A DNA stretch of 64,000 bases. It comes from Candidatus Tayloriibacteriota bacterium. GTDB taxonomy: Bacteria > Patescibacteriota > Minisyncoccia > Phycocordibacterales > PALSA-1337. The notes beneath the pieces are model-generated. The model searched no databases. It was given only the letters and a program-made list of their open reading frames with translations, and had not been told where the DNA came from. Positions 3,158-61,751 of this stretch are shown here, piece after piece. The position numbers and the translations under genes are program-made. The stretch lies in NCBI GenBank assembly GCA_943350765.1, contig CALRAJ010000003.1:1456-65455 (forward strand). Reading direction: 5' to 3'. Every line of letters begins with the position of its first letter. Position 1 is the first letter of the stretch.

Positions 3158-3330
3158 TATTCTCCCTTAGTAAAGGCCATCTACAGGTGGTCTATCGGTT
3201 AGGGATAGACATCTGTGGACGATCGATCAACAAACGATCGACTCTGCACCGACAGTACTCTGGCGCGGAGGGATTTGAAACTTAAATCCCTCGGCCTGGA
3301 GCCTGCTCCCTTTACAAAGGGAGAATAATC
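3158..3330. mobile_element. MITE-like element family A, copy 1 (TIR TTATTCTCCCTTT..AAGGGAGAATAA)
   Basis: about 170 bp bounded by inverted ATTCTCCCTT / AAGGGAGAAT ends; internal sequence near-identical, inverted, to 4975-5118. Confidence 0.55.
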
Positions 3331-3341
3331 CACGGTTTTAA

Positions 3342-3912: not shown

Positions 3913-3950
3913 TTCCTATTTTTGGCCAGTCGTTCATTCGCCTGGTTTTT

Positions 3951-4133
3951 TTATTGCAATTGTGGAGAATACCCCGACGGCTTGCCGCGGGGATGAATCC
4001 GCAAGAATGAAGATGAGGTCGGCGGAGCCGACACATATGCAACAAAGTTTACCCTGATGTCTCGCCTAATACCCCGCCGAGGTACTCCGAGGGAATAGCT
4101 TGCTACGGGGATAGGACGAGACTAAACTTTATT
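3951..4133 (-). repeat. 183-bp GC-rich structured repeat, copy 1 (inverted relative to 47613-47785)
   Basis: reverse complement is about 96% identical (about 8 mismatches) to 47613-47785; contains hairpins CCCCGACGGCTTGCCGCGGGG and GTCGGCGGAGCCGAC. Confidence 0.7.
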
Positions 4134-4250
4134 TTCCCTAAAACATTTTGAGTACAAAATGTTCGGGCTAGCCCGGGAGTACCCATCGCCCTAGGGCGGT
4201 CAAATTTTATTGAATTTGGTTTAGCCTCTAAAATCATCTATACTTAGACC

Positions 4251-4910
4251 ATGATCTACCTCATGTACGGCACAGACACCGACTCTGCTTTAAAAAAGGC
4301 ACAAGCGACAATTGCGTCTTTGCAAAAAAAGAAGCCAGATGCTTCATTTATTAAAGTGGAAAATAATGGACAGGAGAGCTTGTCTCTCGATGAATACATA
4401 GGTGGACAGGGTTTGTTTGAAAACAAACAACTGATATTTTTTGACCGAGTGTTGGAGAATAAAAAGGTGGCGGAGGATATACTCGACCGACTGGCGGACA
4501 TGCAAAAAACAGAAAATGTTTTTATTTTCCTTGAGGGTGCTCTGACCAAAGCTATATTAGGAAGATTTGAAAAAAGGGCGGAGAAAATAACTGAATATGC
4601 GAAGGCAAAGTCTGAAACAAAAGCTGATAAGTTTGATATGTTTTCTCTGACTAACGCACTAGGGGCGGGGGACAAGAAACAGCTCTGGATGCTCTATCTA
4701 CAAGCACAGGAGACTGGCTCGGTGCCTGAGCAAATTCACGGCCTGCTCTTTTGGAAAGTAAAAGATATGCTGGTAAAGAGAAACACTCGGGCGTATGATG
4801 AGCCAGCTCTCAAAACTATGTCATCTGAGCTCGTCTCGATGTACCACGATGCCCATCGAGGTCTCTGCGATTTCTCCATAGCACTAGAGGCATGGATATT
4901 GAAAAGATAG
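4251..4910 (+). CDS. holA: DNA polymerase III delta subunit-like (short HolA)
   Basis: 219 aa; N-terminal MIYLMYG..LFENKQLIFF pattern typical of delta subunit; weak assignment; TATACT -10 element 6 nt before the ATG. Confidence 0.5.
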   Translation: MIYLMYGTDTDSALKKAQATIASLQKKKPDASFIKVENNGQESLSLDEYIGGQGLFENKQLIFFDRVLENKKVAEDILDRLADMQKTENVFIFLEGALTKAILGRFEKRAEKITEYAKAKSETKADKFDMFSLTNALGAGDKKQLWMLYLQAQETGSVPEQIHGLLFWKVKDMLVKRNTRAYDEPALKTMSSELVSMYHDAHRGLCDFSIALEAWILKR

Positions 4911-4974
4911 TTTGAGACGGCTTGGACTAGCGGAAACCCATTTTTTCTGATATATTCTCTTTTGCTTCCTGTAT

Positions 4975-5118
4975 TTATTCTCCCTTTGAAAAGGGAGCAG
5001 ACCAGCAGGTCGAGGGATTTGAAATCTAGAAATCCATCCACGCCAGATTACTGTCGGTGAGTCGATCGTTTGTGATAGACACCTGTAGACGGTCCCTTTA
5101 GGAAAGGGAGAATAAATC
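4975..5118. mobile_element. MITE-like element family A, copy 2
   Basis: TTATTCTCCCTTTGAAAAGGGAG .. CCCTTTAGGAAAGGGAGAATAAATC inverted ends; interior is the reverse complement of the copy-1 interior. Confidence 0.55.
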
Positions 5119-5127
5119 AAAATGTAC

Positions 5128-5196
5128 GCGGCTATAGCCCCGACGCGCAAAGCGGTCGGGATCCCGACCAAAGCGTCGGGGCTCAGTCGGCAAGAA
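5128..5196 (+). repeat. partial duplicate of the tRNA-Lys 5' half with a 43-nt hairpin insertion
   Basis: GCGGCTATAGC + CCCGACGCGCAAAGCGGTCGGGATCCCGACCAAAGCGTCGGGG + CTCAGTCGG matches the tRNA-Lys 5' end GCGGCTATAGCTCAGTCGG. Confidence 0.5.
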
Positions 5197-5217
5197 TTTT
5201 GATACAATTAAATATAT

Positions 5218-5293
5218 GCGGCTATAGCTCAGTCGGTAGAGCACCTGCCTTTTAAGCAGAGGGTCGTTGGTTCGATTCCAACTAGCCGCACCA
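5218..5293 (+). tRNA. tRNA-Lys (anticodon TTT), CCA encoded
   Basis: cloverleaf: acceptor GCGGCTA/TAGCCGC, D-arm AGCTCAGTCGGTAGAGC, anticodon loop CTTTTAA, T-arm GTTGGTTCGATTCCAAC. Confidence 0.9.
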
Positions 5294-5499
5294 ATTTAAA
5301 AATCTCCCAAATTCATTTGGGAGATTTTTAAATTGGTGCGGCTAGAGCAAGCCGACTGCTCGGCTTGCGTTTGGAATCGAACAGCGGAGCCATGTTTTTC
5401 TACCAAGAAAAACGGGCGAGCTGGTGCCCAGACTTTTCCGAGCGACGGCGAGGAAAAAGTCGCGGGCGATAAATGTACCCATGGTCCAACTAGCCGCAA
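5294..5499 (+). repeat. tRNA-linked composite element, type II core (follows tRNA-Lys)
   Basis: 42-nt palindromic hairpin; inverted copy TGGTGCGGCTAG-[CUGC-loop hairpin]-TTGGAATCGAAC of the tRNA-Lys 3' end; core ..GGTGCCCAGAC-hairpin-AGTCGCGGGCGATAAATGTACCCATGGTC; direct copy CCAACTAGCCGCA. Confidence 0.6.
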
Positions 5500-7118: not shown

Positions 7119-7210
7119 AACGGCTCAGTGGTTTTACGGCTGAGCCGTTCCAGCTAAAATATGGCTCTAGATATAGGTTTAAACGGCTAAACACTAGTGT
7201 TTAGCCGTTT
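7119..7210. repeat. two adjacent palindromic elements (AACGGCTCAGTGG..CTGAGCCGTT and AAACGGCTAAACACTAGTGTTTAGCCGTTT)
   Basis: perfect inverted repeats directly after the trmH-family gene; members of the bipartite palindrome family. Confidence 0.5.
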
Positions 7211-7264
7211 AGGTATTAGCGAAAACAGGCGATTTTGGGTATAAACCTCATGATCGTTTACTCT

Positions 7265-9356: not shown

Positions 9357-9439
9357 TGGGAAATAAAGAAAACTGCCGACCAGAAGGTCGGCAGTTTTCT
9401 ATTTTGGTGCTCTTGGACAGACGCTTCGCTATCGAACTC

Positions 9440-9585
9440 CTGGGGAACCCCGTCTACAGGTGCACATCATCTACCGATGTGCCACGGTTCTCCCAATCCT
9501 TCCTCCACGGGAAAACGCCTGTTTTCCCGACCCCTTTCCTGTTCGATTCCTGCCAGGAACGCAACAAACAGCTACGCCTTTTTTG
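9440..9585 (-). repeat. tRNA-linked composite element, type I core (follows tRNA-Arg-GCG on minus strand)
   Basis: inverted T-arm copy GTTCGATTCCTGCCAGGA 9541-9558, then minus-strand core GGGTCGGGAAAACAGGCGTTTTCCCGTGGAGGAA..; degenerate direct copy of the tRNA 3' end near 9406-9420. Confidence 0.55.
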
Positions 9586-9657
9586 TGCTCCTGGCAGGAA
9601 TCGAACCTGCATTTCTCCCTTCGCAGGGGAGTGTCCTATCCGTTGAACGACAAGAGC
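9586..9657 (-). tRNA. tRNA-Arg (anticodon GCG, unusual for bacteria)
   Basis: minus-strand cloverleaf: acceptor GCTCTTG/CAGGAGC, anticodon stem CTCCC/GGGAG, loop CTGCGAA, T-arm GCAGGTTCGATTCCTGC. Confidence 0.75.
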
Positions 9658-9667
9658 GGTAGGTAAA

Positions 9668-9809
9668 CCCCAAATTATGGAATACCGTCGCGGGCGTATC
9701 TTTTTGAAAGACTTCGGAAGCGGGTAGCTGAGACTTGAGAGATTTCTTACCAAAGAAATACTCGTGCTTTCAAAAAGATACGCTAAGAAAGGTGTTTCGT
9801 AATTTGGGG
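9668..9809. mobile_element. MITE-like element family B copy with TAAA target-site duplication
   Basis: TIRs CCCCAAATTATGGAATACC / GGTGTTTCGTAATTTGGGG; TAAA on both flanks; internal hairpin GCGTATCTTTTTGAAAG..CTTTCAAAAAGATACGC enclosing the conserved core GCGGGTAGCTGAGACTTGAGAGATTTCT. Confidence 0.6.
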
Positions 9810-9882
9810 TAAAGAAATATTAGCCAAACTAAAATTATCTAAAACACTAGCAGGAAACGCGATTTACCTTATCACACAAACA

Positions 9883-13321: not shown

Positions 13322-13666
13322 ATGTTCGACTATTTTTCCAGTCTAGGATACTATATAAATATGCCCATCACTTCTTCACTGGTTGTTTCGTTTGCGATAG
13401 GGATTATTGTCGGAACACTTTTTGTCTACAAGAAAAGTGGGTCGTACGGAAAGAATAGACAGCACAGAGAAAAGGAAAAAAGAAAAGCATTAATAATGGA
13501 TTTATTCGCTACTCGCTTTGAGGTGCGAAATAATGATGTTGAGCGCATGTTTGCCGTGTCTGATGCGACGGCTACGAACTATTTGAGTGAGCTAGAGGCT
13601 GAGGGAAAGGTAAGGCAGGTGGGGAGTCGGGGGAGGTTTGTGACTTACGAGAAAATCAAAGGCTAA
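13322..13666 (+). CDS. hypothetical small membrane protein with a basic C-terminal region
   Basis: 114 aa, one TM helix, K/R-rich linker. Confidence 0.3.
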   Translation: MFDYFSSLGYYINMPITSSLVVSFAIGIIVGTLFVYKKSGSYGKNRQHREKEKRKALIMDLFATRFEVRNNDVERMFAVSDATATNYLSELEAEGKVRQVGSRGRFVTYEKIKG

Positions 13667-13725
13667 ACAGGGGTGTTTAGCCTTTGAGCGTGGCTACACA
13701 GAGCCATTTTGGGTTTTTGGCTAAA

Positions 13726-13870: not shown

Positions 13871-13898
13871 CCCCCGAAAATCTACTGATTTTCGGGGG
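13871..13898 (-). repeat. TCAGTAGA-loop hairpin (minus orientation)
   Basis: CCCCCGAAAATCTACTGATTTTCGGGGG; same loop octamer as 31993-32036, 51718-51741, 57427-57454, 60060-60090, 61625-61657. Confidence 0.5.
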
Positions 13899-18588: not shown

Positions 18589-18663
18589 GCCCTCGTAGTT
18601 CAATGGATAGAACTGCGGACTTCTAAGCCGTCAATGTTGGTTCGATTCCAACCGAGGGCACCA
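18589..18663 (+). tRNA. tRNA-Arg (anticodon TCT), CCA encoded
   Basis: acceptor GCCCTCG/CGAGGGC, anticodon loop CTTCTAA (A31-G39 mismatch in stem), T-arm GTTGGTTCGATTCCAAC. Confidence 0.85.
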
Positions 18664-19027
18664 AATAAACCTGTAAGGGTTTTTTGTGCAACCTCGGTTG
18701 GAATCGAACCGGAAAGGGGTCGGGGAACGGGAGTTCCCCGTGGAGGAAAACAACGAGTACTCGAGTGTTAGAAACCGTGGGTTTCTAAAGAGCCCGACAC
18801 ACGGAGGGCGAGTGAGATAGCGAAGCGCCCAACCGAGGGCACAAAAAAATGCGGAGCACTTTTTGTGCCCTCGAGCAGGCAAACTGCTTTGCCTGCGGGT
18901 CGGAATCGAACAGCGGAGTCATGTTTTTATACCAAGAAAAACAGGCGAGCTGGTGCCCAGACCAAAGTTTTTGACGAAAAACTTTGAGTCGCGGGCGATA
19001 AATGTACTCATGGTCCAACCGAGGGTT
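18664..19027 (+). repeat. tRNA-linked composite elements: type I core then type II core in tandem (follow tRNA-Arg-TCT)
   Basis: inverted copy CAACCTCGGTTGGAATCGAACC 18689-18710; type I core 18715-18792; direct copy CCCAACCGAGGGCACA 18828-18843; inverted TGTGCCCTCG-[CUGC hairpin]-GGTCGGAATCGAAC 18863-18910; type II core ..GGTGCCCAGACC-hairpin-AGTCGCGGGCGATAAATGTACTCATGGTC; direct copy CAACCGAGGG 19015-19026. Confidence 0.6.
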
Positions 19028-19062
19028 TGATTTCGGTATTAAAAAGTGTATTATGGTTTCAT

Positions 19063-19665
19063 ATGGAATACAAAAAGCTCGTACAAAAAATCGCTAACCT
19101 TGATTGGGCTAAAGCAAATCCTGGTGATATAGTTTTGTTATCTCTTTGTACCGCAAAGGAGTTTGCATCTAGTCTTCGTTTTGGATTTGATTTATATCCA
19201 AACGATGAACGCTTCAAGGAAATGGCAAGTGGTGAGCTTAAAACGGACAACATGGTTTTTGAGGATTATGCAAGGAAAGGGGATCATTGGGAATTTCTGG
19301 ATCATTTTGTCACAAAGTACAAAATTACACCAACAAAATCAACAATTCCATCTGCGATGGAGAATTATGTCTCTGCGGTCGAAGGATTTTCTGATGCCGA
19401 TCGAGCGATGACAGTTTTTTCTCGTGAAGAAGAGTTAACTTTGATATTTGAAAAAATTGTCGCGGCACATGATTGGGATAGCCTCGGTTTTGGTTTTTAT
19501 AAATACTATCTAAAACAGCACATATTATTTGATTCTGGGGATAATGGACACGCACATCTTACAAAGCATTTTCCTATGCACAAGCCGACCCTCGAGAGAT
19601 TCTATAAAGCACGCTTAGACCTATACGCCTCACTCTTCCCATACGGCTCAACAGAGCCAAAATGA
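19063..19665 (+). CDS. hypothetical protein (possible heme-oxygenase-like/DUF3050-type fold)
   Basis: about 200 aa, helical; no confident motif. Confidence 0.3.
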   Translation: MEYKKLVQKIANLDWAKANPGDIVLLSLCTAKEFASSLRFGFDLYPNDERFKEMASGELKTDNMVFEDYARKGDHWEFLDHFVTKYKITPTKSTIPSAMENYVSAVEGFSDADRAMTVFSREEELTLIFEKIVAAHDWDSLGFGFYKYYLKQHILFDSGDNGHAHLTKHFPMHKPTLERFYKARLDLYASLFPYGSTEPK

Positions 19666-19697
19666 ACGGCTCAACAGGCCTGTTGAGCCGTTCATTT

Positions 19698-20585
19698 CTA
19701 CACCCCTCCATTCACCGCTTTTTCTGCCATTTTTAAGGCCCCTTCTTTTGACCACGCTTTTGCAATAAAACCATTTTTGTGACAGAACTCTGCGTCTGAA
19801 ACTCCACAAATACCCGCCAGCTCAACACGCATTCGCCCACGCCATTCGGTGGGAAAGAGTACTCGATAGCTAAAACCTTTGGCTGTGTCATTTGGCACAC
19901 AGGCGATGACCCATTCTCCAGTATTTTGGTCTGGGTGGATTACAAACAAGGGCTCTTTGAGCTTTCCTAGAGTTGATTTCCATGGGTAGGGATGCTCGAG
20001 TAAAATTATTCTTTTGTCTTTTGCATGTGCATAAGCTGTGCGAACTTCTTCTAGGTCTCGGAAAAAGTATTCGGCTTTTTCAATTTCTTTTAATACGATG
20101 ACTTTGATGAGCGGGAGAAGCTCAGTAAATGTATCATCGACATTGGCACTATCTCGCCAAGTCGGGGTGAGGGCTGAGAGAACATTGTTAAATAAATATG
20201 GATAGACACCTTCCCGTACTGGGGAGAAAAGAGCAACGCCGTTGTCGGCGGCATCGATAGGCTGGACCAGCTTTTTGTCTACTATGTCTGCAACCCGAGG
20301 ATCCTTTGCAATAAGATGGGCGTATTCTTTCCACACCAGTCCAAAGCTGGCATAGGGGATACCATTCGCTCTCTGACCTGCCCCGCCTTCCTGATGGTGG
20401 TCAAAACGACCATTTTTGGCGTCATTTATACCGCCTACATCGATGGCGTAGTCGGCATTTTTAATGAGATCAGTGTCTCGTGTGCGGACGATTTTTATTC
20501 CATCACCAAAAATAAGAAGGAGAGTGGCAATAGCAAAAAGCTCATCTTGATGGAAGCTTCCGCTGTGGGTAGTGAGGGTTTTCAT
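19698..20585 (-). CDS. MYG1/UPF0160-family metal-dependent hydrolase
   Basis: HSGSFHQDE N-terminal motif and DHHQ motif characteristic of MYG1. Confidence 0.8.
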   Translation of the reverse strand: MKTLTTHSGSFHQDELFAIATLLLIFGDGIKIVRTRDTDLIKNADYAIDVGGINDAKNGRFDHHQEGGAGQRANGIPYASFGLVWKEYAHLIAKDPRVADIVDKKLVQPIDAADNGVALFSPVREGVYPYLFNNVLSALTPTWRDSANVDDTFTELLPLIKVIVLKEIEKAEYFFRDLEEVRTAYAHAKDKRIILLEHPYPWKSTLGKLKEPLFVIHPDQNTGEWVIACVPNDTAKGFSYRVLFPTEWRGRMRVELAGICGVSDAEFCHKNGFIAKAWSKEGALKMAEKAVNGGV

Positions 20586-28424: not shown

Positions 28425-28444
28425 GCCTTATTTTGTGGAGATTT

Positions 28445-28495
28445 AAACGGCTAAACGCTAGCGTTTAGCCGTTTAGCATGGCTCTATATAGCCAT
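28445..28495. repeat. bipartite palindromic element (AAACGGCTAAACGCTAGCGTTTAGCCGTTT plus CATGGCTCTATATAGCCAT)
   Basis: perfect palindromes immediately after the rluA-family gene. Confidence 0.55.
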
Positions 28496-30292: not shown

Positions 30293-30366
30293 GGTGGCTA
30301 TAGTTTAGTGGTAAAACTCCGGTTTGTGGAACCGGTATCGAGAGTCCGATTCTCTCTAGCCACCCA
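30293..30366 (+). tRNA. tRNA-His (anticodon GTG) with encoded G-1
   Basis: G-1 paired to discriminator C; acceptor GTGGCTA/TAGCCAC; anticodon stem CCGGT/ACCGG, loop TTGTGGA; T-arm GAGAGTCCGATTCTCTC. Confidence 0.85.
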
Positions 30367-30408
30367 AAAATAATGAGACAAACGCGGAGCGTTTGTCGAC
30401 TGTATTTT

Positions 30409-30537
30409 TGGCATGGTTAGAGAGAATCGGACGACGGAGCGGGGTACCCACATAACAATGTGGGTCGCGAGTCGGTGCCCAGACCGAGGCGAGTGGCGAC
30501 GAGCCTTGAGTCGCGGGAGATTCTCTCTAGCCACCCC
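30409..30537 (+). repeat. tRNA-linked composite element, type II core (follows tRNA-His)
   Basis: terminator hairpin GACAAACGCGGAGCGTTTGTC; inverted copy TGGCATGGTTAGAGAGAATCGGAC; GACGGAG; hairpin ACCCACATAACAATGTGGGT; GTCGGTGCCCAGACC; hairpin CGAGGCGAGTGGCGACGAGCCTTG; AGTCGCGGG; direct copy AGATTCTCTCTAGCCACCCC. Confidence 0.6.
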
Positions 30538-31986: not shown

Positions 31987-31992
31987 GTTGGT

Positions 31993-32051
31993 GAAATACA
32001 CCCGAAATTTTCAGTAGAAAATTTCGGGTGTATTTCAACGGCTCAACAGGC
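31993..32051 (+). repeat. TCAGTAGA-loop hairpin followed by AACGGCTCAACAGGC half-palindrome
   Basis: GAAATACACCCGAAATTTTCAGTAGAAAATTTCGGGTGTATTTC, a 19-bp stem. Confidence 0.55.
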
Positions 32052-44164: not shown

Positions 44165-44181
44165 GACAGTAGGATAAAATA

Positions 44182-44423
44182 CCCCGAATTACGAAATACC
44201 GTCTACATGTGTCGATCATAAACGATCGACCCTTTCTTGGCATATCTTTTTGAAGCCTATCGGTTAGGGATAGGCATCTGTAGACGAAGCCCTCGTATTT
44301 TCTTGCTAGAAAATCTCTCAAGTCTCAGCTACCCTGCTTGCGCCGTCTACAGGGACACATCATCTAAACGATGTGAAAGTCTTTCAAAAAGATACGCCTG
44401 CGACAGTATTTCGTAATTCGGGG
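44182..44423. mobile_element. MITE-like element family B (composite) with 7-bp TAAAATA target-site duplication
   Basis: TIRs CCCCGAATTACGAAATACCGTC / GACAGTATTTCGTAATTCGGGG; TAAAATA at 44175-44181 and 44424-44430; core TCTTGCTAGAAAATCTCTCAAGTCTCAGCTACCC plus a segment (TATCGGTTAGGGATAGGCATCTGTAGACG) shared with family A. Confidence 0.65.
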
Positions 44424-44482
44424 TAAAATAAAAAAGCTGTCGGGTGAACGACAGCTCGGGACAATCTTTGTATGGGTGATAA

Positions 44483-45679
44483 TTATGCTTTCTTTCGATC
44501 ACCCTTTGGGATTTGCCTACTACCAACTGGACGAACTAACGGCATTCTTTCAAGTTTGCGTACTTCGTTCGCGAGTTTTCTTAGGGTAATTTCCTGAATC
44601 TGGCGGACCCGCTCTCGGGTGATACCAAACTTTAAGCCGACCTCCTCGAGGGTTTTCTCGTCGCCACCGTCGAGACCGTACCGATAGCGGATAATAGTCG
44701 CTTCTCGGGGGACTAAGGTCAAAACTATTTTCTGCACCATGGCACAATTGATTTTTTTCTCGAGCTCATCAGAAGGATCCTCGGCAGTCTCATCGGCGAC
44801 CACATCAATGAGTCTATTGGAATCCTCGTCGTTTCCCAGACTGCCATTTAGAGGGGCTGGGCTAGCTACTCCATGAGCTAGTCGCAGTTGAGCGATTTTC
44901 TCTGCCGTTGTCCCAAGCTCATCTGCCACTTCGGCATCCGCAGGCTCGCGTCCCAGCAACTCCTGCAACTTCGCAGTCGTTTTACGGACATGAAAGAGCT
45001 TGTCTACGATATGTACGGGTAGGCGGATGGTCTTGGACTGGTTGGCAAGCGCCCGCTTGATCGCCTGCTTGATCCACCACGCCGCGTAGGTGGAAAGCTT
45101 GGCGCCCTTACTGGGATCAAAGCGTTCGACTGCCTTCATGAGACCGATGTTACCCTCGCTGACGAGGTCGAGTAGAGGCACGCCGTAGTTTTCGTAGTCG
45201 CGGGCGATTTTCACCACCAGCCGAAGATTCGCTTTGATCATGTGTTCCCGTGCCTCCTTGTCGCCCCGCTTGATGCGTGCTGCTAGGTCGATTTCGTCTT
45301 GTGGCGTCAAGAGTGGGGTTTCCGCGATTTCGCGTAGATACAGCTGGAAGCTTGTACCGCCGTCGTAAGCACCTCGCACAATGACAGGTTCAGAGGGCAA
45401 TACCCCCTCGCGTGGAAACTTTAGGTATGATCGTTCAGGTACGACATGCCCAACTGCAAGAGTTTTTTCCTTAGGCACTTTGACTTTCGGAACCATCTTT
45501 TTCTTCAGATTAGGCTTTTTGTACTTTTTGGGTACCTTTTTTGCCGTTACCACCAACTTTACTGGAGATGCTTTACGGTGAGCGTGTCGTGGTCGGACGA
45601 CACTTCCTTTACGACCAACACACAACACCACTGAATTTGTGAGATGGTGTCTACCGTTTCCGACAATTTCTTGCTCCAT
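44483..45679 (-). CDS. rpoD: RNA polymerase sigma-70 (primary sigma factor) with K/P-rich N-terminal extension
   Basis: region 2 DLVSEGNIGLMKAVERFDPSKGAKLSTYAAWWIKQAI, region 3, region 4 LTPREATIIRYRYGL..TLEEVGLKFGITRERVRQIE. Confidence 0.9.
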   Translation of the reverse strand: MEQEIVGNGRHHLTNSVVLCVGRKGSVVRPRHAHRKASPVKLVVTAKKVPKKYKKPNLKKKMVPKVKVPKEKTLAVGHVVPERSYLKFPREGVLPSEPVIVRGAYDGGTSFQLYLREIAETPLLTPQDEIDLAARIKRGDKEAREHMIKANLRLVVKIARDYENYGVPLLDLVSEGNIGLMKAVERFDPSKGAKLSTYAAWWIKQAIKRALANQSKTIRLPVHIVDKLFHVRKTTAKLQELLGREPADAEVADELGTTAEKIAQLRLAHGVASPAPLNGSLGNDEDSNRLIDVVADETAEDPSDELEKKINCAMVQKIVLTLVPREATIIRYRYGLDGGDEKTLEEVGLKFGITRERVRQIQEITLRKLANEVRKLERMPLVRPVGSRQIPKGDRKKA

Positions 45680-47444: not shown

Positions 47445-47505
47445 CGTTCTTGGCTAAAATATTCAAAAATCTTGCTACCAAAATACGGCTCTAAGTCTAG
47501 GTTTC

Positions 47506-47533
47506 AAAGGCTAAACGCTAGCGTTTAGCCTTT
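47506..47533. repeat. palindromic element AAAGGCTAAACGCTAGCGTTTAGCCTTT
   Basis: perfect palindrome, member of the bipartite palindrome family. Confidence 0.5.
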
Positions 47534-47612
47534 GAAATATTTGAGTATTTTCTGGGTGTAATTTTTGACCTAGATGCGACCTTTTCCGCGGCGTACTCGC
47601 CGCGGGTTGTTA

Positions 47613-47870
47613 AATAAAGTTTAGCCTCGTCCTATCCCCGTAGCAAGCTATTCCCTCGGATTACCTCGGCGGGGTATTAGGCGAGGCATCAGGGTAAACT
47701 TTGTTGCAGAAGTGTCGGCTCCGCCGACTTCATCTTCATTCTTGCGGATTCATCCCCGCGGCAAGCCGTCGGGGTATTCTCCACAATTGCAATAAAGTTT
47801 AGTCTCGTCCTATTCCAGCGACAAGCTGTCGGGGTTATTATCCACAATTACAATAAAAAAACCACCCCTA
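47613..47870 (+). repeat. 183-bp structured repeat, copy 2 (47613-47785), plus internally deleted tandem partial copy (47781-47870)
   Basis: about 96% identical to the reverse complement of 3951-4133; the partial copy retains the 5' AATAAAGTTTAGTCTCGTCCTAT and 3' GTCGGGGTTATTATCCACAATTACAATAAA ends. Confidence 0.7.
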
Positions 47871-50462: not shown

Positions 50463-51008
50463 ATGTCAAAACAACAAATCGAAGGTCAGCGAAATTGGTA
50501 TGCTATCCATACTTATGCCGGGTATGAAAATGCTGTTGTACGAAACCTAAAACAGCGTATCGAGTCTCTAGGTATGGAGGACAAGATTTTTAATGTTTTG
50601 GTACCGACCGAAAAGACAGTAAAAGTAAAAGGTGGTAAGCGAGTAGAAGAGGATACAAAAATATACCCAGGATATATTCTCGTGGATATGATCGTTACCG
50701 ATGACTCATGGTATGTGGTACGCAACACCCCTCGAGTGACGGGCTTTGTGGGTTCAGGTGTAACCCCCGTACCTCTGGAGAAAAAAGAGGTAGACCAGCT
50801 TTTGGGTAAAATGAATAGTAAGACGGTAAAGCATGCGATAGACCTGTCTCCCGATGACTCAGTAATCATCACAGACGGACCATTTAAGGAGCTTGAAGGC
50901 AAGGTGTCTGAGGTAGATGCTGAACGAGGCAAGGTCAAGGTACTCGTTTCGATGTTTGGTCGGGAAACTCCAGTAGAGCTGGACTTCTTGCAAATCAAGA
51001 AGATTTAG
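50463..51008 (+). CDS. nusG: transcription termination/antitermination factor NusG
   Basis: NGN domain [15 protein letters not shown].., C-terminal [21 protein letters not shown]. Confidence 0.9.
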
Positions 51009-51021
51009 GGTATTGTGGGGT

Positions 51022-51144
51022 CACGAAGTTCTTTATCGGCATATCTTTTAAATGGCACGAGTATTTTCTTGCTAGAAAATCTCTCAAGTCTCAGCTACCC
51101 GCTTCCGAAGTCCATTTAAAAGATACGCCTTCAACGAACTTCGT
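51022..51144 (+). mobile_element. MITE-like element family B copy in the nusG-rplK spacer
   Basis: about 28-bp imperfect TIRs CACGAAGTTCTTTATCGGCATATCTTTT / AAAAGATACGCCTTCAACGAACTTCGTG; core TCTTGCTAGAAAATCTCTCAAGTCTCAGCTACCC. Confidence 0.6.
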
Positions 51145-51259
51145 GGCGGAGTACTCCATGCTTCTTGGGGTAATCTACCTTGTTTATTCATAATATTATA
51201 ATACTTACTCGTCCCGCCGTAGCTTTAGCGAAGGTGGAAATCTAACTTCTATTTAAAAA

Positions 51260-51682
51260 ATGGCTAAAAAAATTACAAAAAAATTAAAGCTCCAGATTGC
51301 TGGAGGAAAGGCAAATCCAGCACCTCCAGTCGGTCCTGCACTCGGTCAAGCTGGAGTAAATATCGGTGAATTCGTCAAGCGTTTTAATGACGCCACAAAG
51401 ACGATGATCGGAGATATTGTTCCTGTCGAAATTTCTGTTTACGAAGACCGAACATTTGATTTTATTCTCAAAACTCCTCCAGCTTCAAGTCTTATTCTCA
51501 AGGCTATTGGCAAGGAAAAGGGTTCGGGTAAGCCAAACTCTGCAAAGATCGGTACTATTACCAAAGCACAGATCAGAGCGATCGCTGAAAAGAAACTTCC
51601 AGATCTCAATGCCAATGATATCAATGCCGCTATGAAGATTATAGAAGGTTCTGCACGGTCAATGGGAGTTGACGTCAAATAA
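51260..51682 (+). CDS. rplK: 50S ribosomal protein L11
   Basis: [31 protein letters not shown] signature. Confidence 0.95.
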
Positions 51683-51690
51683 TGGCTAAA

Positions 51691-51741
51691 ACAATTTTTA
51701 CTAAAATTGTTCGCCCGAACATTTTTCTACTGAAAAATGTT
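51691..51741 (-). repeat. two hairpins after rplK, the second with TCTACTGA (rc TCAGTAGA) loop
   Basis: ACAATTTTTACTAAAATTGT and AACATTTTTCTACTGAAAAATGTT. Confidence 0.5.
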
Positions 51742-51785
51742 TTAGGGGTGTGGATGTGAAATAGATTTCTCTCTAAAAATAAAAA

Positions 51786-53021: not shown

Positions 53022-53071
53022 GTTGTTTTTGTTTCCGTAAGGCATATACTGATAGTATAGCATTTTCAACT

Positions 53072-53192
53072 CCAAACTTCGTTGAAGGCGTATCTTTTAA
53101 ATGGACTTCGGAGGTGGGTAACCGAGACTTGAGAGATTTTCTACCAAGAAAATACTCGTGCCATTTAAAAGATGTGCCGAGAAAGAAGTTTG
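53072..53192 (-). mobile_element. MITE-like element family B copy (inverted orientation)
   Basis: TIRs CCAAACTTCGTTGAAGGCGTATCTTTT / AAAAGATGTGCCGAGAAAGAAGTTTGG; core is the reverse complement of the 51022-51144 copy. Confidence 0.6.
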
Positions 53193-53224
53193 GAATTGAA
53201 AATGTACCCTTTTAATAAAACAAC

Positions 53225-57382: not shown

Positions 57383-57454
57383 GCGGAAAGGCTCGACGGG
57401 TGACCAGTGAGCCGTTGAACCTGTTTCCCCCGATTTTCAGTAGAAAATCGGGGG
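57383..57454 (+). repeat. imperfect palindrome plus TCAGTAGA-loop hairpin
   Basis: GGCGGAAAGGCTCGACGGG..GAGCCGTTGAACC then CCCCCGATTTTCAGTAGAAAATCGGGGG. Confidence 0.5.
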
Positions 57455-57547
57455 ACTGACTGAGTACTCGGTACTTTCGACTTTTGAACTGCTCCCATTC
57501 TTAATTCCTAAATCTGGCTTCTACTCAAAATATGCTATAGTACTATT

Positions 57548-59895: not shown

Positions 59896-59984
59896 GGAGA
59901 GATGGATGAGTGGCTTAAATCAACGGTTTACTAAACCGTCGTTCCCTAACAGGAACCGTGGGTTCGAATCCCACTCTCTCCGCA
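59896..59984 (+). tRNA. type II tRNA (Ser-like) with unusual anticodon loop TTACTAA (nominal anticodon ACT)
   Basis: acceptor GGAGAGA/TCTCTCC, 3-bp D-stem, anticodon stem ACGGT/ACCGT, long variable arm CGTTCCCTAACAGGAAC, T-arm GTGGGTTCGAATCCCAC. Confidence 0.65.
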
Positions 59985-60024
59985 AACGGCCCAAAAAGAA
60001 AGAAGTTCTTTTTGGGTAGCCGTT

Positions 60025-60360
60025 GCGCGAGAGAGTGGGATTCGAACGCCGGAACTCATAATTTTCAGTAGAAAATTTAGTGAGGCGGTGCCCAGACAAA
60101 TTTTTTCGACGGAAAAAATTTAGTCGCGGGCGAAAAACGTACTCGTGGTCTCGCTCTCTCCGCCTTCGGTCCGCAGTAGCTTGGCTTCGGAGTGACACAG
60201 TCCGCAGAAGATGAGCGAAGGCGGGAAGGGGATTCGAAGCCAGATTGAGTATTTTTTCGATTTTGTAATCAAATGAAGAAAAAATCCAATCGGGGTACTG
60301 AAACTGTAAGTTTCGAAAAGCGTACTCGTGGTCTCGCTCTCTTTTCGATACTGCCATTGA
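60025..60360 (+). repeat. tRNA-linked composite element, type II core (follows the type II tRNA), with additional partial duplication
   Basis: terminator hairpin 59986-60024; inverted copy GCGCGAGAGAGTGGGATTCGAAC; hairpin CTCATAATTTTCAGTAGAAAATTTAGTGAG; GCGGTGCCCAGAC; hairpin AAATTTTTTCGACGGAAAAAATTT; AGTCGCGGGCGAAAAACGTACTCGTGGTC; direct copy TCGCTCTCTCCGCC; second direct copy at 60322-60350. Confidence 0.6.
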
Positions 60361-61588: not shown

Positions 61589-61705
61589 AATTCTTTTTGA
61601 TAATATGTTCGGGGGAACGGTGGCTAACCTTACTAATTTTTCAGTAGAAAATTTAGTAAGGCGCTGCCCAGACCAAAGTTTTTGACGAAAAACTTTGAAT
61701 ATCGG
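61589..61705 (+). repeat. orphan type II composite element (no tRNA)
   Basis: inverted partial copy GGTGGCTAACC of the preceding GGTCAGCCAC; hairpin CTTACTAATTTTTCAGTAGAAAATTTAGTAAG; GCGCTGCCCAGACC; hairpin CAAAGTTTTTGACGAAAAACTTTG identical to that in 18965-18988. Confidence 0.55.
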
Positions 61706-61751
61706 GAGAAATTCTTACTCACTTATCCATAAATAGAATTAACGTAAACCT

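Follow-up and report, generated by a model that had tools for sequence, protein, structure and literature searches.

What kind of element is the hairpin repeat at 44175-44430 of a 64,000-nucleotide stretch of a Candidatus Tayloriibacteriota genome (contig CALRAJ010000003.1, positions 1,456 to 65,455; hereafter the window), and by what means could it have spread? The original prediction had taken it for one of four copies of a miniature inverted-repeat transposable element (MITE), with terminal inverted repeats (TIRs), target-site duplications, a conserved internal hairpin and other repeat modules nested inside. We found that the copies form a real, well-delimited repeat family. Its dispersed, non-coding and hairpin-forming character was borne out by core matches, folds and 22 copies, and its modular, nested build by modules that are shared, inserted and swapped. 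The reading that we prefer, with a probability of roughly one half, is that these repeats are non-coding, non-autonomous mobile DNA hairpins (~105-250 bp) of Paceibacteria, built of nested modules and working as folded hairpins rather than through conserved TIRs.

The family is defined by its core. The 24-mer AAATCTCTCAAGTCTCAGCTACCC occurs exactly at 9722-9745 (reverse strand), 44311-44334 (forward) and 51077-51100 (forward), and with 2 mismatches at 53116-53139 (reverse); none was found in 100 shuffles. All four window copies therefore share a core as proposed, but the exact 34-mer quoted for them is present only in the 44-kb and 51-kb copies, which are identical over 40 nt, and the 9.7-kb and 53-kb copies diverge from it inside a small internal hairpin. 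The long hairpins also held up, since all four copies fold far more stably than dinucleotide shuffles (z of -6.0, -8.9, -6.9 and -11.6). A covariance model built from the core (R1) was searched in ~267 kb made up of the window and related DNA, in which the labels L001-L036 denote the related contigs or loci compared with the window, and it matched 22 distinct copies. Eight of these lie in ~84 kb of this genome, four in the window and four in the flanking 20 kb, which gives a density of ~1 copy per 10 kb. The elements measure 105-250 bp, every one of the 22 distinct copies is intergenic, and by inspection the core carries stop codons in every frame.

The window is part of a Paceibacteria contig assembled from a metagenome (ENA ERZ27265268 k141_2237933), and the proteins closest to its NusG carry the labels Patescibacteria, Paceibacterota or Taylorbacteria. 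Scanning of public collections with the core returned a single GTDB species representative, the Patescibacteria metagenome-assembled genome (MAG) FW305_bin.8, and seven metagenome contigs. The core of the 9.7-kb copy is identical at 60/60 positions to those of copies in L001, L003, L006 and L008, on unrelated stems, although orthologous genes of this genome and FW305_bin.8 share just 67-88% DNA identity; conservation of the core exceeds even that of rplK, and subfamilies are common to several genomes. A phage or plasmid origin found no match by blastn against plasmid and phage collections, and a pattern scan of IMG/VR gave just chance 16-mer matches without core context. We did not find the family described in the literature on repeats of Parcubacteria and the candidate phyla radiation (CPR).

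What is conserved is an asymmetric core of 56 nt, carried on the tip of a long stem. On the sense strand it reads CAC-GAG-T-ATTTCTT-TGGT-AAGAAAT-CTC-TCAAGTCTC-AGC-TACCC-GCT-TCCGAAGT, that is, a 5' CAC, the hairpin P2 (3+7 bp with a bulged T), the unpaired J2/3 (TCAAGTCTC), the 3-bp stem P3 with its loop TACCC, and the tail TCCGAAGT. The unpaired TCAAGTCTC, TACCC and CGAAG are invariant or nearly so. The long form, found in at least nine copies, adds a variable helix of 5-7 bp, a middle helix GGCRTATCTTTT/AAAAGATAYGCC that is semi-conserved, an internal loop that is conserved and non-complementary (5' CTTTCTC versus 3' TTCGACG) and an outer helix of ~20 bp, which is near-perfect inside each copy and different between copies. 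The short form, AAAAAAGAG-core-CTCTTTTTT, continues into stems that are unrelated and perfect over as much as 30 bp, and it occurs mostly in FW305_bin.8 and similar contigs. A CCCC-type shell (CCCCRAATTACGAAAT) wraps five or six copies. In the 51-kb and 53-kb copies, what had been described as TIRs of ~28 bp turned out to be the middle stem GGCRTATCTTTT/AAAAGATAYGCC, a non-complementary loop and a copy-specific outer stem. A tRNA-like origin of the core was considered and dismissed, as TCAAGTCTC is shared with the T arm of tRNA-Leu without a matching stem, which we judged to be chance.

The copy at 44 kb is the most composite: to the shell and the long form it adds an extra inner stem and three more nested modules. 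One of its modules is common to a second repeat of the window, family A, a composite hairpin of ~140-170 nt closed by TTATTCTCCCTTT...AAAGGGAGAATAA (window 3160-3335 and 4968-5105; L016 10556-10720; L017 11755-11920). The parts of the 44-kb copy, followed by the other three window copies, are these:

44175-44181, no strand: left flanking direct repeat TAAAATA, with an identical 7-mer at 44424-44430.
44182-44199, forward: left arm CCCCGAATTACGAAATAC of the outer inverted repeat, CCCC-type shell (from the sequence).
44199-44230, forward: nested module CCGTCTACATGTGTCGATCATAAACGATCGAC with a small hairpin at 44211-44230 (from repeat comparison and fold).
44231-44255, forward: left arm of the long form, internal-loop strand CCTTTCTT and middle stem GGCATATCTTTTTGAAG.
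44256-44274, forward: nested hairpin CCTATCGGTTAGGGATAGG, common to family A at 3190-3215.
44275-44286, forward: left strand CATCTGTAGACG of the extra inner stem, pairing with 44344-44353 (from the fold).
44291-44334, forward: core, with P2 as ATTTTCT-TGCT-AGAAAAT, J2/3 as TCAAGTCTC, and AGC-TACCC.
44335-44381, forward: insertion in the 3' loop, CCGTCTACAGG plus the hairpin CACATC-ATCTAAAC-GATGTG, then the kept tail AAAGTC.
44381-44405, forward: right arm of the long form, middle stem CTTTCAAAAAGATACGCC and internal-loop strand TGCGACA.
44406-44423, reverse: right arm of the outer inverted repeat (GTATTTCGTAATTCGGGG on the forward strand).
44424-44430, no strand: right flanking direct repeat TAAAATA.
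9668-9809, reverse: copy 2, CCCC-type shell and long form, core at 9710-9766 (reverse).
51022-51145, forward: copy 3, in the nusG-rplK spacer, core at 51056-51111.
53061-53204, reverse: copy 4, between folA/DHFR (reverse) and a CYTH gene (forward), core at 53105-53160 (reverse).

Small hairpin modules have been inserted into copies or swapped within them, and degenerate copies exist. In the 44-kb copy the 5' end of the core is degenerate, with CCTCG in place of CACGAG, and the core scores 42 bits with the covariance model versus 93 bits for intact copies. Its left arm CCCCGAATTACGAAATAC recurs in the 9.7-kb copy, L009 and L036:2876 and is diverged in L035:7315 and L004b; its module CCGTCTACATGTGTCGATCATAAACGATCGAC, which none of the other CCCC-type copies has, is paralogous to 5061-5093. 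Insertions into the core fall in the 3' loop (44-kb copy, L001b, L015 and L017, each with the CCGTCTACAGG...GATGTG module, which also stands alone at 9450-9490) or in P3 (L036:7995). The segments said to be shared with 3181-3240, 5050-5100 and 9450-9490 are real by repeat comparison. Copy 2 is flanked by TAAA at 9664-9667 and 9810-9813 and sits 10 nt upstream of tRNA-Arg(GCG) (9585-9657, reverse). Copy 3 lies, as had been noticed, between nusG (50463-51008) and rplK (51260-51682); its middle stem pairs 51038-51055 with 51112-51129, and its outer stem pairs CACGAAGTTC with GAACTTCGTG. Copy 4, with 92% identity to copy 3, has an outer stem of CATTTTCAACTCCAAACTTC and GAAGTTTGGAATTGAAAATG. As a separate observation, the rpoD (sigma-70) gene at 44483-45679 (reverse) stands between an ABC-transporter operon and a methyltransferase gene in this genome alone; these neighbours adjoin in L015, L016 and L017, 55-90 nt apart, and the 44-kb repeat copy sits at the junction of this rearrangement.

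Comparison with related genomes, which the original prediction had proposed as a check, revealed empty sites at orthologous spacers in three or four comparisons. The nusG-rplK spacer measures 251 nt with the element here and is empty in L015 (81 nt), L017 (93 nt) and L019 (16 nt), whose NusG proteins are 96%, 94% and 86% identical to that of this genome; in L016 the identical insertion point, after GGTATTGTG, is taken by family A. The element between the DUF5673 gene and tRNA-Arg is absent in L032. Upstream of secE, L015 and L017 carry a copy where this genome and L016 have a plain terminator hairpin, and the DHFR-CYTH spacer, filled here, has no element in L016, where it measures 35 nt, and holds family A in L017. 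Presence and absence at orthologous intergenic sites indicate that copies moved or were gained and lost; gain and loss between related genomes is what we observe. Degenerate, chimeric and insertion-bearing copies are present, as expected of elements that are born and decay.

The stems vary between copies in a way that looks compensatory. The predicted exchange of AAATGG/CCATTT for TGAAAG/CTTTCA is present in the sequences of the copies. Across an alignment of 14 copies, pairing holds in 95.5% of cells, versus 40-60% with the partners slid by 1-3 columns, both sides have changed in 26/33 pairs, and for four of five covariation measures the controls exceed the observed value in 0/500 shuffles. 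P3 appears as AGC/GCT, GGC/GCC or GGT/ACC, and the base of P2 as GAG/CTC, GGA/TCC or GAA/TTC. Only 3 among 441 paired cells are G-U, leaving the pairing almost purely Watson-Crick, and the mismatches in the longer arms (19 G.T versus 13 A.C) favour neither strand, so that the wobble signature specific to RNA is absent by both the G-U count and the mismatch balance. Near-pure Watson-Crick pairing of this kind marks a DNA palindrome, or a structure needed on both strands, rather than a one-strand RNA. At least part of this "covariation" is module replacement: the L015 and L017 orthologues hardly differ outside P2, a hairpin that has been swapped in full between them. The tail AAGTC stays beside the closing stem despite 40 nt inserted before it; together with the strict conservation of the unpaired core, this points to a folded single strand as the form that matters.

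How, then, could an invariant centre come to sit on arms that differ from copy to copy? Counting perfect palindromes with stems of 12 bp or more, the window has 31 where shuffles have ~0.25, and these include loop-less palindromes of 32-38 bp. At several palindromes one arm is flanking sequence and the other its inverted copy. The 3' end of tRNA-Lys with 19 nt of flank is duplicated in inverted form as a perfect 31-bp palindrome, the terminator palindrome upstream of secE in L016 has grown over the secE -35 box common to all relatives, and the outer stem of the 53-kb copy has 7 nt in common with the flank at the empty L016 site, opposite a new partner arm. We infer from this arrangement that hairpins may have been extended or perfected by intrastrand template switching, a process known from quasipalindrome mutagenesis, with one flank or arm copied onto the other. 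This could have produced the locus-specific near-perfect stems, and it would yield "compensatory" changes without G-T intermediates. As an alternative or additional source of stems, the element might land in the centres of existing palindromes, an insertion that the loop-less palindromes make plausible. A trans-acting enzyme encoded elsewhere would recognise the core as its cis-acting module, probably in the form of folded single-stranded DNA (ssDNA); the CCCC-type shell may be a carrier of the core resembling TA-targeting MITEs, and any use of the hairpins at transcript ends would be secondary.

Several points weigh against mobile DNA hairpins as the answer. No mobilising enzyme was found, the neighbour genes being housekeeping genes, and a six-frame regular-expression scan of 226 kb for HUH/Y1 (RAYT-type) proteins, which was crude and ran on partial genomes, gave no match. 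Insertion polymorphism within a population was not seen, as contigs of the same strain are identical or end inside the repeat. Pairwise alignment does not fix the exact empty-site junctions because the spacers are roughly 25% diverged, and the case that the arms came from template switching draws on a few loci. A 60-nt core kept at 100% where genes are ~75% identical is stronger conservation than is usual for a selfish cis site and equally suggests a host or RNA function, and the kept AAGTC tail speaks for a single strand in folded form, be it DNA or RNA.

The first of three rival explanations is the classical MITE, an internally deleted derivative of an insertion sequence (IS) with a DDE transposase, perhaps IS630/Tc1-mariner-like, which targets TA, is mobilised through its TIRs and makes duplications. 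The TIR CCCCRAATTAYGRAATAC occurs in the window only at 9668/9792 and 44182/44406, and the flanking TAAAATA (44175-44181/44424-44430) and TAAA (9664-9667/9810-9813) are present as originally described. The CCCC-type TIR is kept in copies from at least three genomes, TA follows immediately 3' of the element in 5/5 CCCC-type copies and also precedes it in three, in a manner that recalls Correia or IS630-derived MITEs, and a 7-nt flanking match is improbable by chance (~1e-4 to 1e-3 per copy by a rough estimate). Insertion polymorphism at orthologous sites would fit as well. However, this TIR is found in just 5-6/22 copies, so that the model fits ~1/4 of the family. Flanking direct repeats accompany CCCC-type copies only and are inconsistent in length (7 nt in the 44-kb copy, 6 nt in L035:7315, 4 nt in the 9.7-kb copy, otherwise 2-3 and 2 nt), which deprives them of the status of a transposition hallmark; the ~16 other copies have no flanking duplication and outer stems that are unrelated or share ~8-10 nt beside the internal loop, and the filled/empty pair at nusG-rplK, the clearest of the comparisons, shows none either. 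It is the interior that is conserved, with a near-invariant 56-nt core inside terminal stems that are unrelated or strongly diverged, and a conserved centre on copy-varying stems does not make a textbook transposon fragment. As for an autonomous partner with matching TIRs, we found no element or transposase near any copy: the 398-aa gene beside the 44-kb copy, a candidate transposase, is rpoD, the neighbours of the other copies are housekeeping genes, and no TIR pair at IS-like spacing occurs in the related DNA scanned. The absence of phage and plasmid matches counts against this model too. The TIR and duplication mechanism is therefore partly right, at most for the CCCC-type shell, and as an account of the whole family we consider it rather doubtful.

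The other two rivals assign the hairpins a task in the host. They could be genes for structured non-coding RNAs, such as a small ribozyme or a protein-binding RNA, with a functional RNA core, a fast-evolving closing stem and paralogues under host selection. This would explain why TCAAGTCTC, TACCC and CGAAG are kept to the nucleotide, unpaired, while P1, P2 and P3 covary, why insertions of variable length are confined to loops with the junction geometry kept, and why subfamilies recur across genomes with a core more conserved than rplK. It sits badly with the near absence of G-U pairs and of strand asymmetry in the arms, with the many degenerate or chimeric copies, with the lack of copies at orthologous sites in close relatives, and with perfect stems of 20-30 bp, which as RNA would be substrates of RNase III. 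Rfam 15 at the gathering score identified tRNAs alone in the window, and nothing relevant appeared for the 51-kb and 44-kb copies even at E<=10; compared by eye, the cores of hammerhead, twister, pistol and hatchet ribozymes did not match. Where both flanking genes agree in direction, 6 copies run with the genes and 7 against. A cis-acting mRNA element was rejected because of this random orientation. No conserved promoter lies upstream, and an outward promoter on the antisense core, TTGAGA-16-AATACT (9/12), is weak, with 10/16 copies facing a gene, which is not significant. The elements are thus probably neither RNA genes nor cis-regulatory RNAs, and the RNA-gene reading in particular strikes us as unlikely. 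We find it just as improbable that they are regulatory palindromes maintained by the host, either terminator or stabiliser hairpins or protein sites like those of REP/BIME or ERIC, spread by recombination or gene conversion and not by transposition. Every copy is intergenic, and several immediately follow a gene; where this genome and L016 have a canonical terminator hairpin, L015 and L017 carry the element, Watson-Crick-only stems would fold in transcripts of either direction, modules are exchanged as cassettes, and the genome is rich in other gene-end palindrome families conserved across genomes. Nevertheless, an intrinsic-terminator scan flagged true terminators nearby (e.g. 44434-44457 and 9367-9400) and not the elements themselves, copies are also met upstream of genes, within an operon for ribosomal proteins (L001a, ahead of S19) and in the nusG-rplK spacer, and neither the strictly conserved asymmetric core nor the direct repeats flanking CCCC-type copies would be explained.

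If the repeats are mobile DNA hairpins, as we prefer, the question is whether a known system already covers them. REP elements and REPINs are mobilised by RAYT, and compensatory changes in REPINs preserve the DNA hairpin (Bertels & Rainey 2011, PMC3116915). The present family resembles REPINs in being short, non-coding, extragenic and non-autonomous, in forming long hairpins in ssDNA or RNA, and in its higher-order mosaics. In REPINs, however, the ends (REP 16-mers) are invariant and the spacer variable, whereas here the centre is invariant and the ends are variable, and the family has neither a GTAG-type REP sequence nor a RAYT match in the DNA scanned. Correia elements (NEMIS/CREE) of Neisseria are intergenic repeats of ~100-155 bp with TA-flanked inverted repeats, found in either orientation and giving hairpin transcripts; no transposase is known for them. 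Size, TA flanks, intergenic position in either orientation and presence or absence between related genomes are shared features. Nevertheless, all Correia copies have a 26-bp TIR and a consistent TA duplication, to which only the CCCC-type subset is similar, and what is conserved here is a structured core in the interior; the two are not known to be related in sequence. ERIC is conserved along its whole 127 bp, and BIMEs are tandem arrangements of REPs. The likeness to ERIC/IRU and BIMEs consists in imperfect intergenic palindromes conserved above their surroundings, variants with internal insertions and mosaics of modules, but sequence and lineage differ. The small dispersed repeats (SDRs) of heterocystous cyanobacteria were reportedly described by Elhai et al. 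in 2008 in Genome Res 18:1484. SDR5 inserts precisely inside the palindrome HIP1 (PMC4390886), and the two share very small nested modules, precise insertion in palindromes and dissimilar contexts. SDR units are 21-27 nt, often tandem and from another phylum, and here a 56-nt structured core sits on a long hairpin; compared by behaviour, our family does show the same tiny module at precise points inside repeats. By defining features it belongs to none of REPIN, Correia, ERIC/BIME or SDR.

As a class, bacterial palindromic intergenic repeats, the family is ordinary. What is unusual is the invariant centre with variable arms, the density in a streamlined CPR genome and the conservation across genomes; genomes of CPR/Patescibacteria are regarded as extremely streamlined. 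Several families of intergenic hairpins, this one among them, keep 80-100% identity between genomes in which the genes now align poorly as DNA. Such repeats break metagenome assemblies at their sites and alter leaders, as in the nusG-rplK spacer. There is a small chance, though not a negligible one, that the core is an undescribed structured RNA or ribozyme of Paceibacteria, or the recognition hairpin of an ssDNA mobilisation system that targets palindrome centres. On the ssDNA version the mobile unit would be just ~60-75 nt, its long stems made from the target by template switching, and either version, an RNA or a new single-strand transposition site, would amount to a new molecular class.

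An invariant centre on variable arms is also seen in the apex hairpin TTTTC-TACT-GAAAA, which occurs at many loci and is interchangeable with P2, and in inverted duplications of tRNA 3' ends. The shared pattern points to a hairpin-based gain, growth and module exchange of DNA that is undescribed for CPR organisms. The apex hairpin or its complement (loop AGTA) centres palindromes with unrelated G+C-rich outer stems. In 5/8 tRNA genes of the window the 3' half (T arm and acceptor strand, sometimes with flank) is inverted just downstream, forming palindromes with perfect stems of 15-31 bp and loops of 2-59 nt; the same arrangement is found at tRNA-Arg(GCG) in L032 (~1430-1500) and L034 (~4515-4575). 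The loci are:

13871-13898, 31992-32037, 51710-51750 and 57426-57455: apex hairpins in the window.
L001 6455-6495, L007 1930-1965, L009 1150-1185, L015 9569-9602, L017 9567-9600 and L032 4378-4407: apex hairpins in relatives.
5282-5345, 9541-9606, 18639-18710, 30344-30432 and 59962-60047: inverted copies of tRNA 3' halves in the window.

Two further repeat families accompany these palindromes. REP-like palindromes of the type AAACGGCTAAAC...GTTTAGCCGTTT stand at gene ends, several of them loop-less and perfect over 32-38 bp, and are conserved in other genomes too (L003 9955-10020 is 86% identical). A family with the layout GGTGCCCAGAC, variable hairpin, GTCGCGGGCGA follows tRNA genes in 4/5 copies and is bounded by an inverted T-arm copy and a direct copy of the tRNA 3' end (e.g. 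60149-60165 and 5484-5497). Conceivable identities for it are a miniature integrative element that targets tRNA genes and an antisense structure resembling a tRNA. The window copies are:

7180-7211, 13656-13687, 19660-19697, 28444-28475 and 47502-47537: AAACGGCTAAAC...GTTTAGCCGTTT palindromes.
5398-5480, 18927-19009, 30467-30521, 60062-60144 and 61638-61720: GGTGCCCAGAC/GTCGCGGGCGA repeats.

In L018 a gene for a large serine recombinase (Resolvase, Recombinase and Zn_ribbon_recom domains) lies at 18595-20166 (reverse), downstream of argS, and is absent from the otherwise near-identical L017. A 185-nt repeat without Rfam match occurs at 3950-4134 and 47612-47796 in inverted orientation; the two copies are 97% complementary, and the FW305_bin.8 MAG has a third (L002 3759-3952) to which their identity is 90-91%. 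Two tRNA genes of the window make unusual choices at position 34 for bacteria, namely the predicted tRNA-Ser with anticodon ACT (59896-59983) and tRNA-Arg with anticodon GCG, the latter also in L032 and L034. The intact tRNA-Lys gene is closely preceded, at 5128-5200, by a duplicate of its 5' part, GCGGCTATAGC...CTCAGTCGG, which a hairpin module splits.

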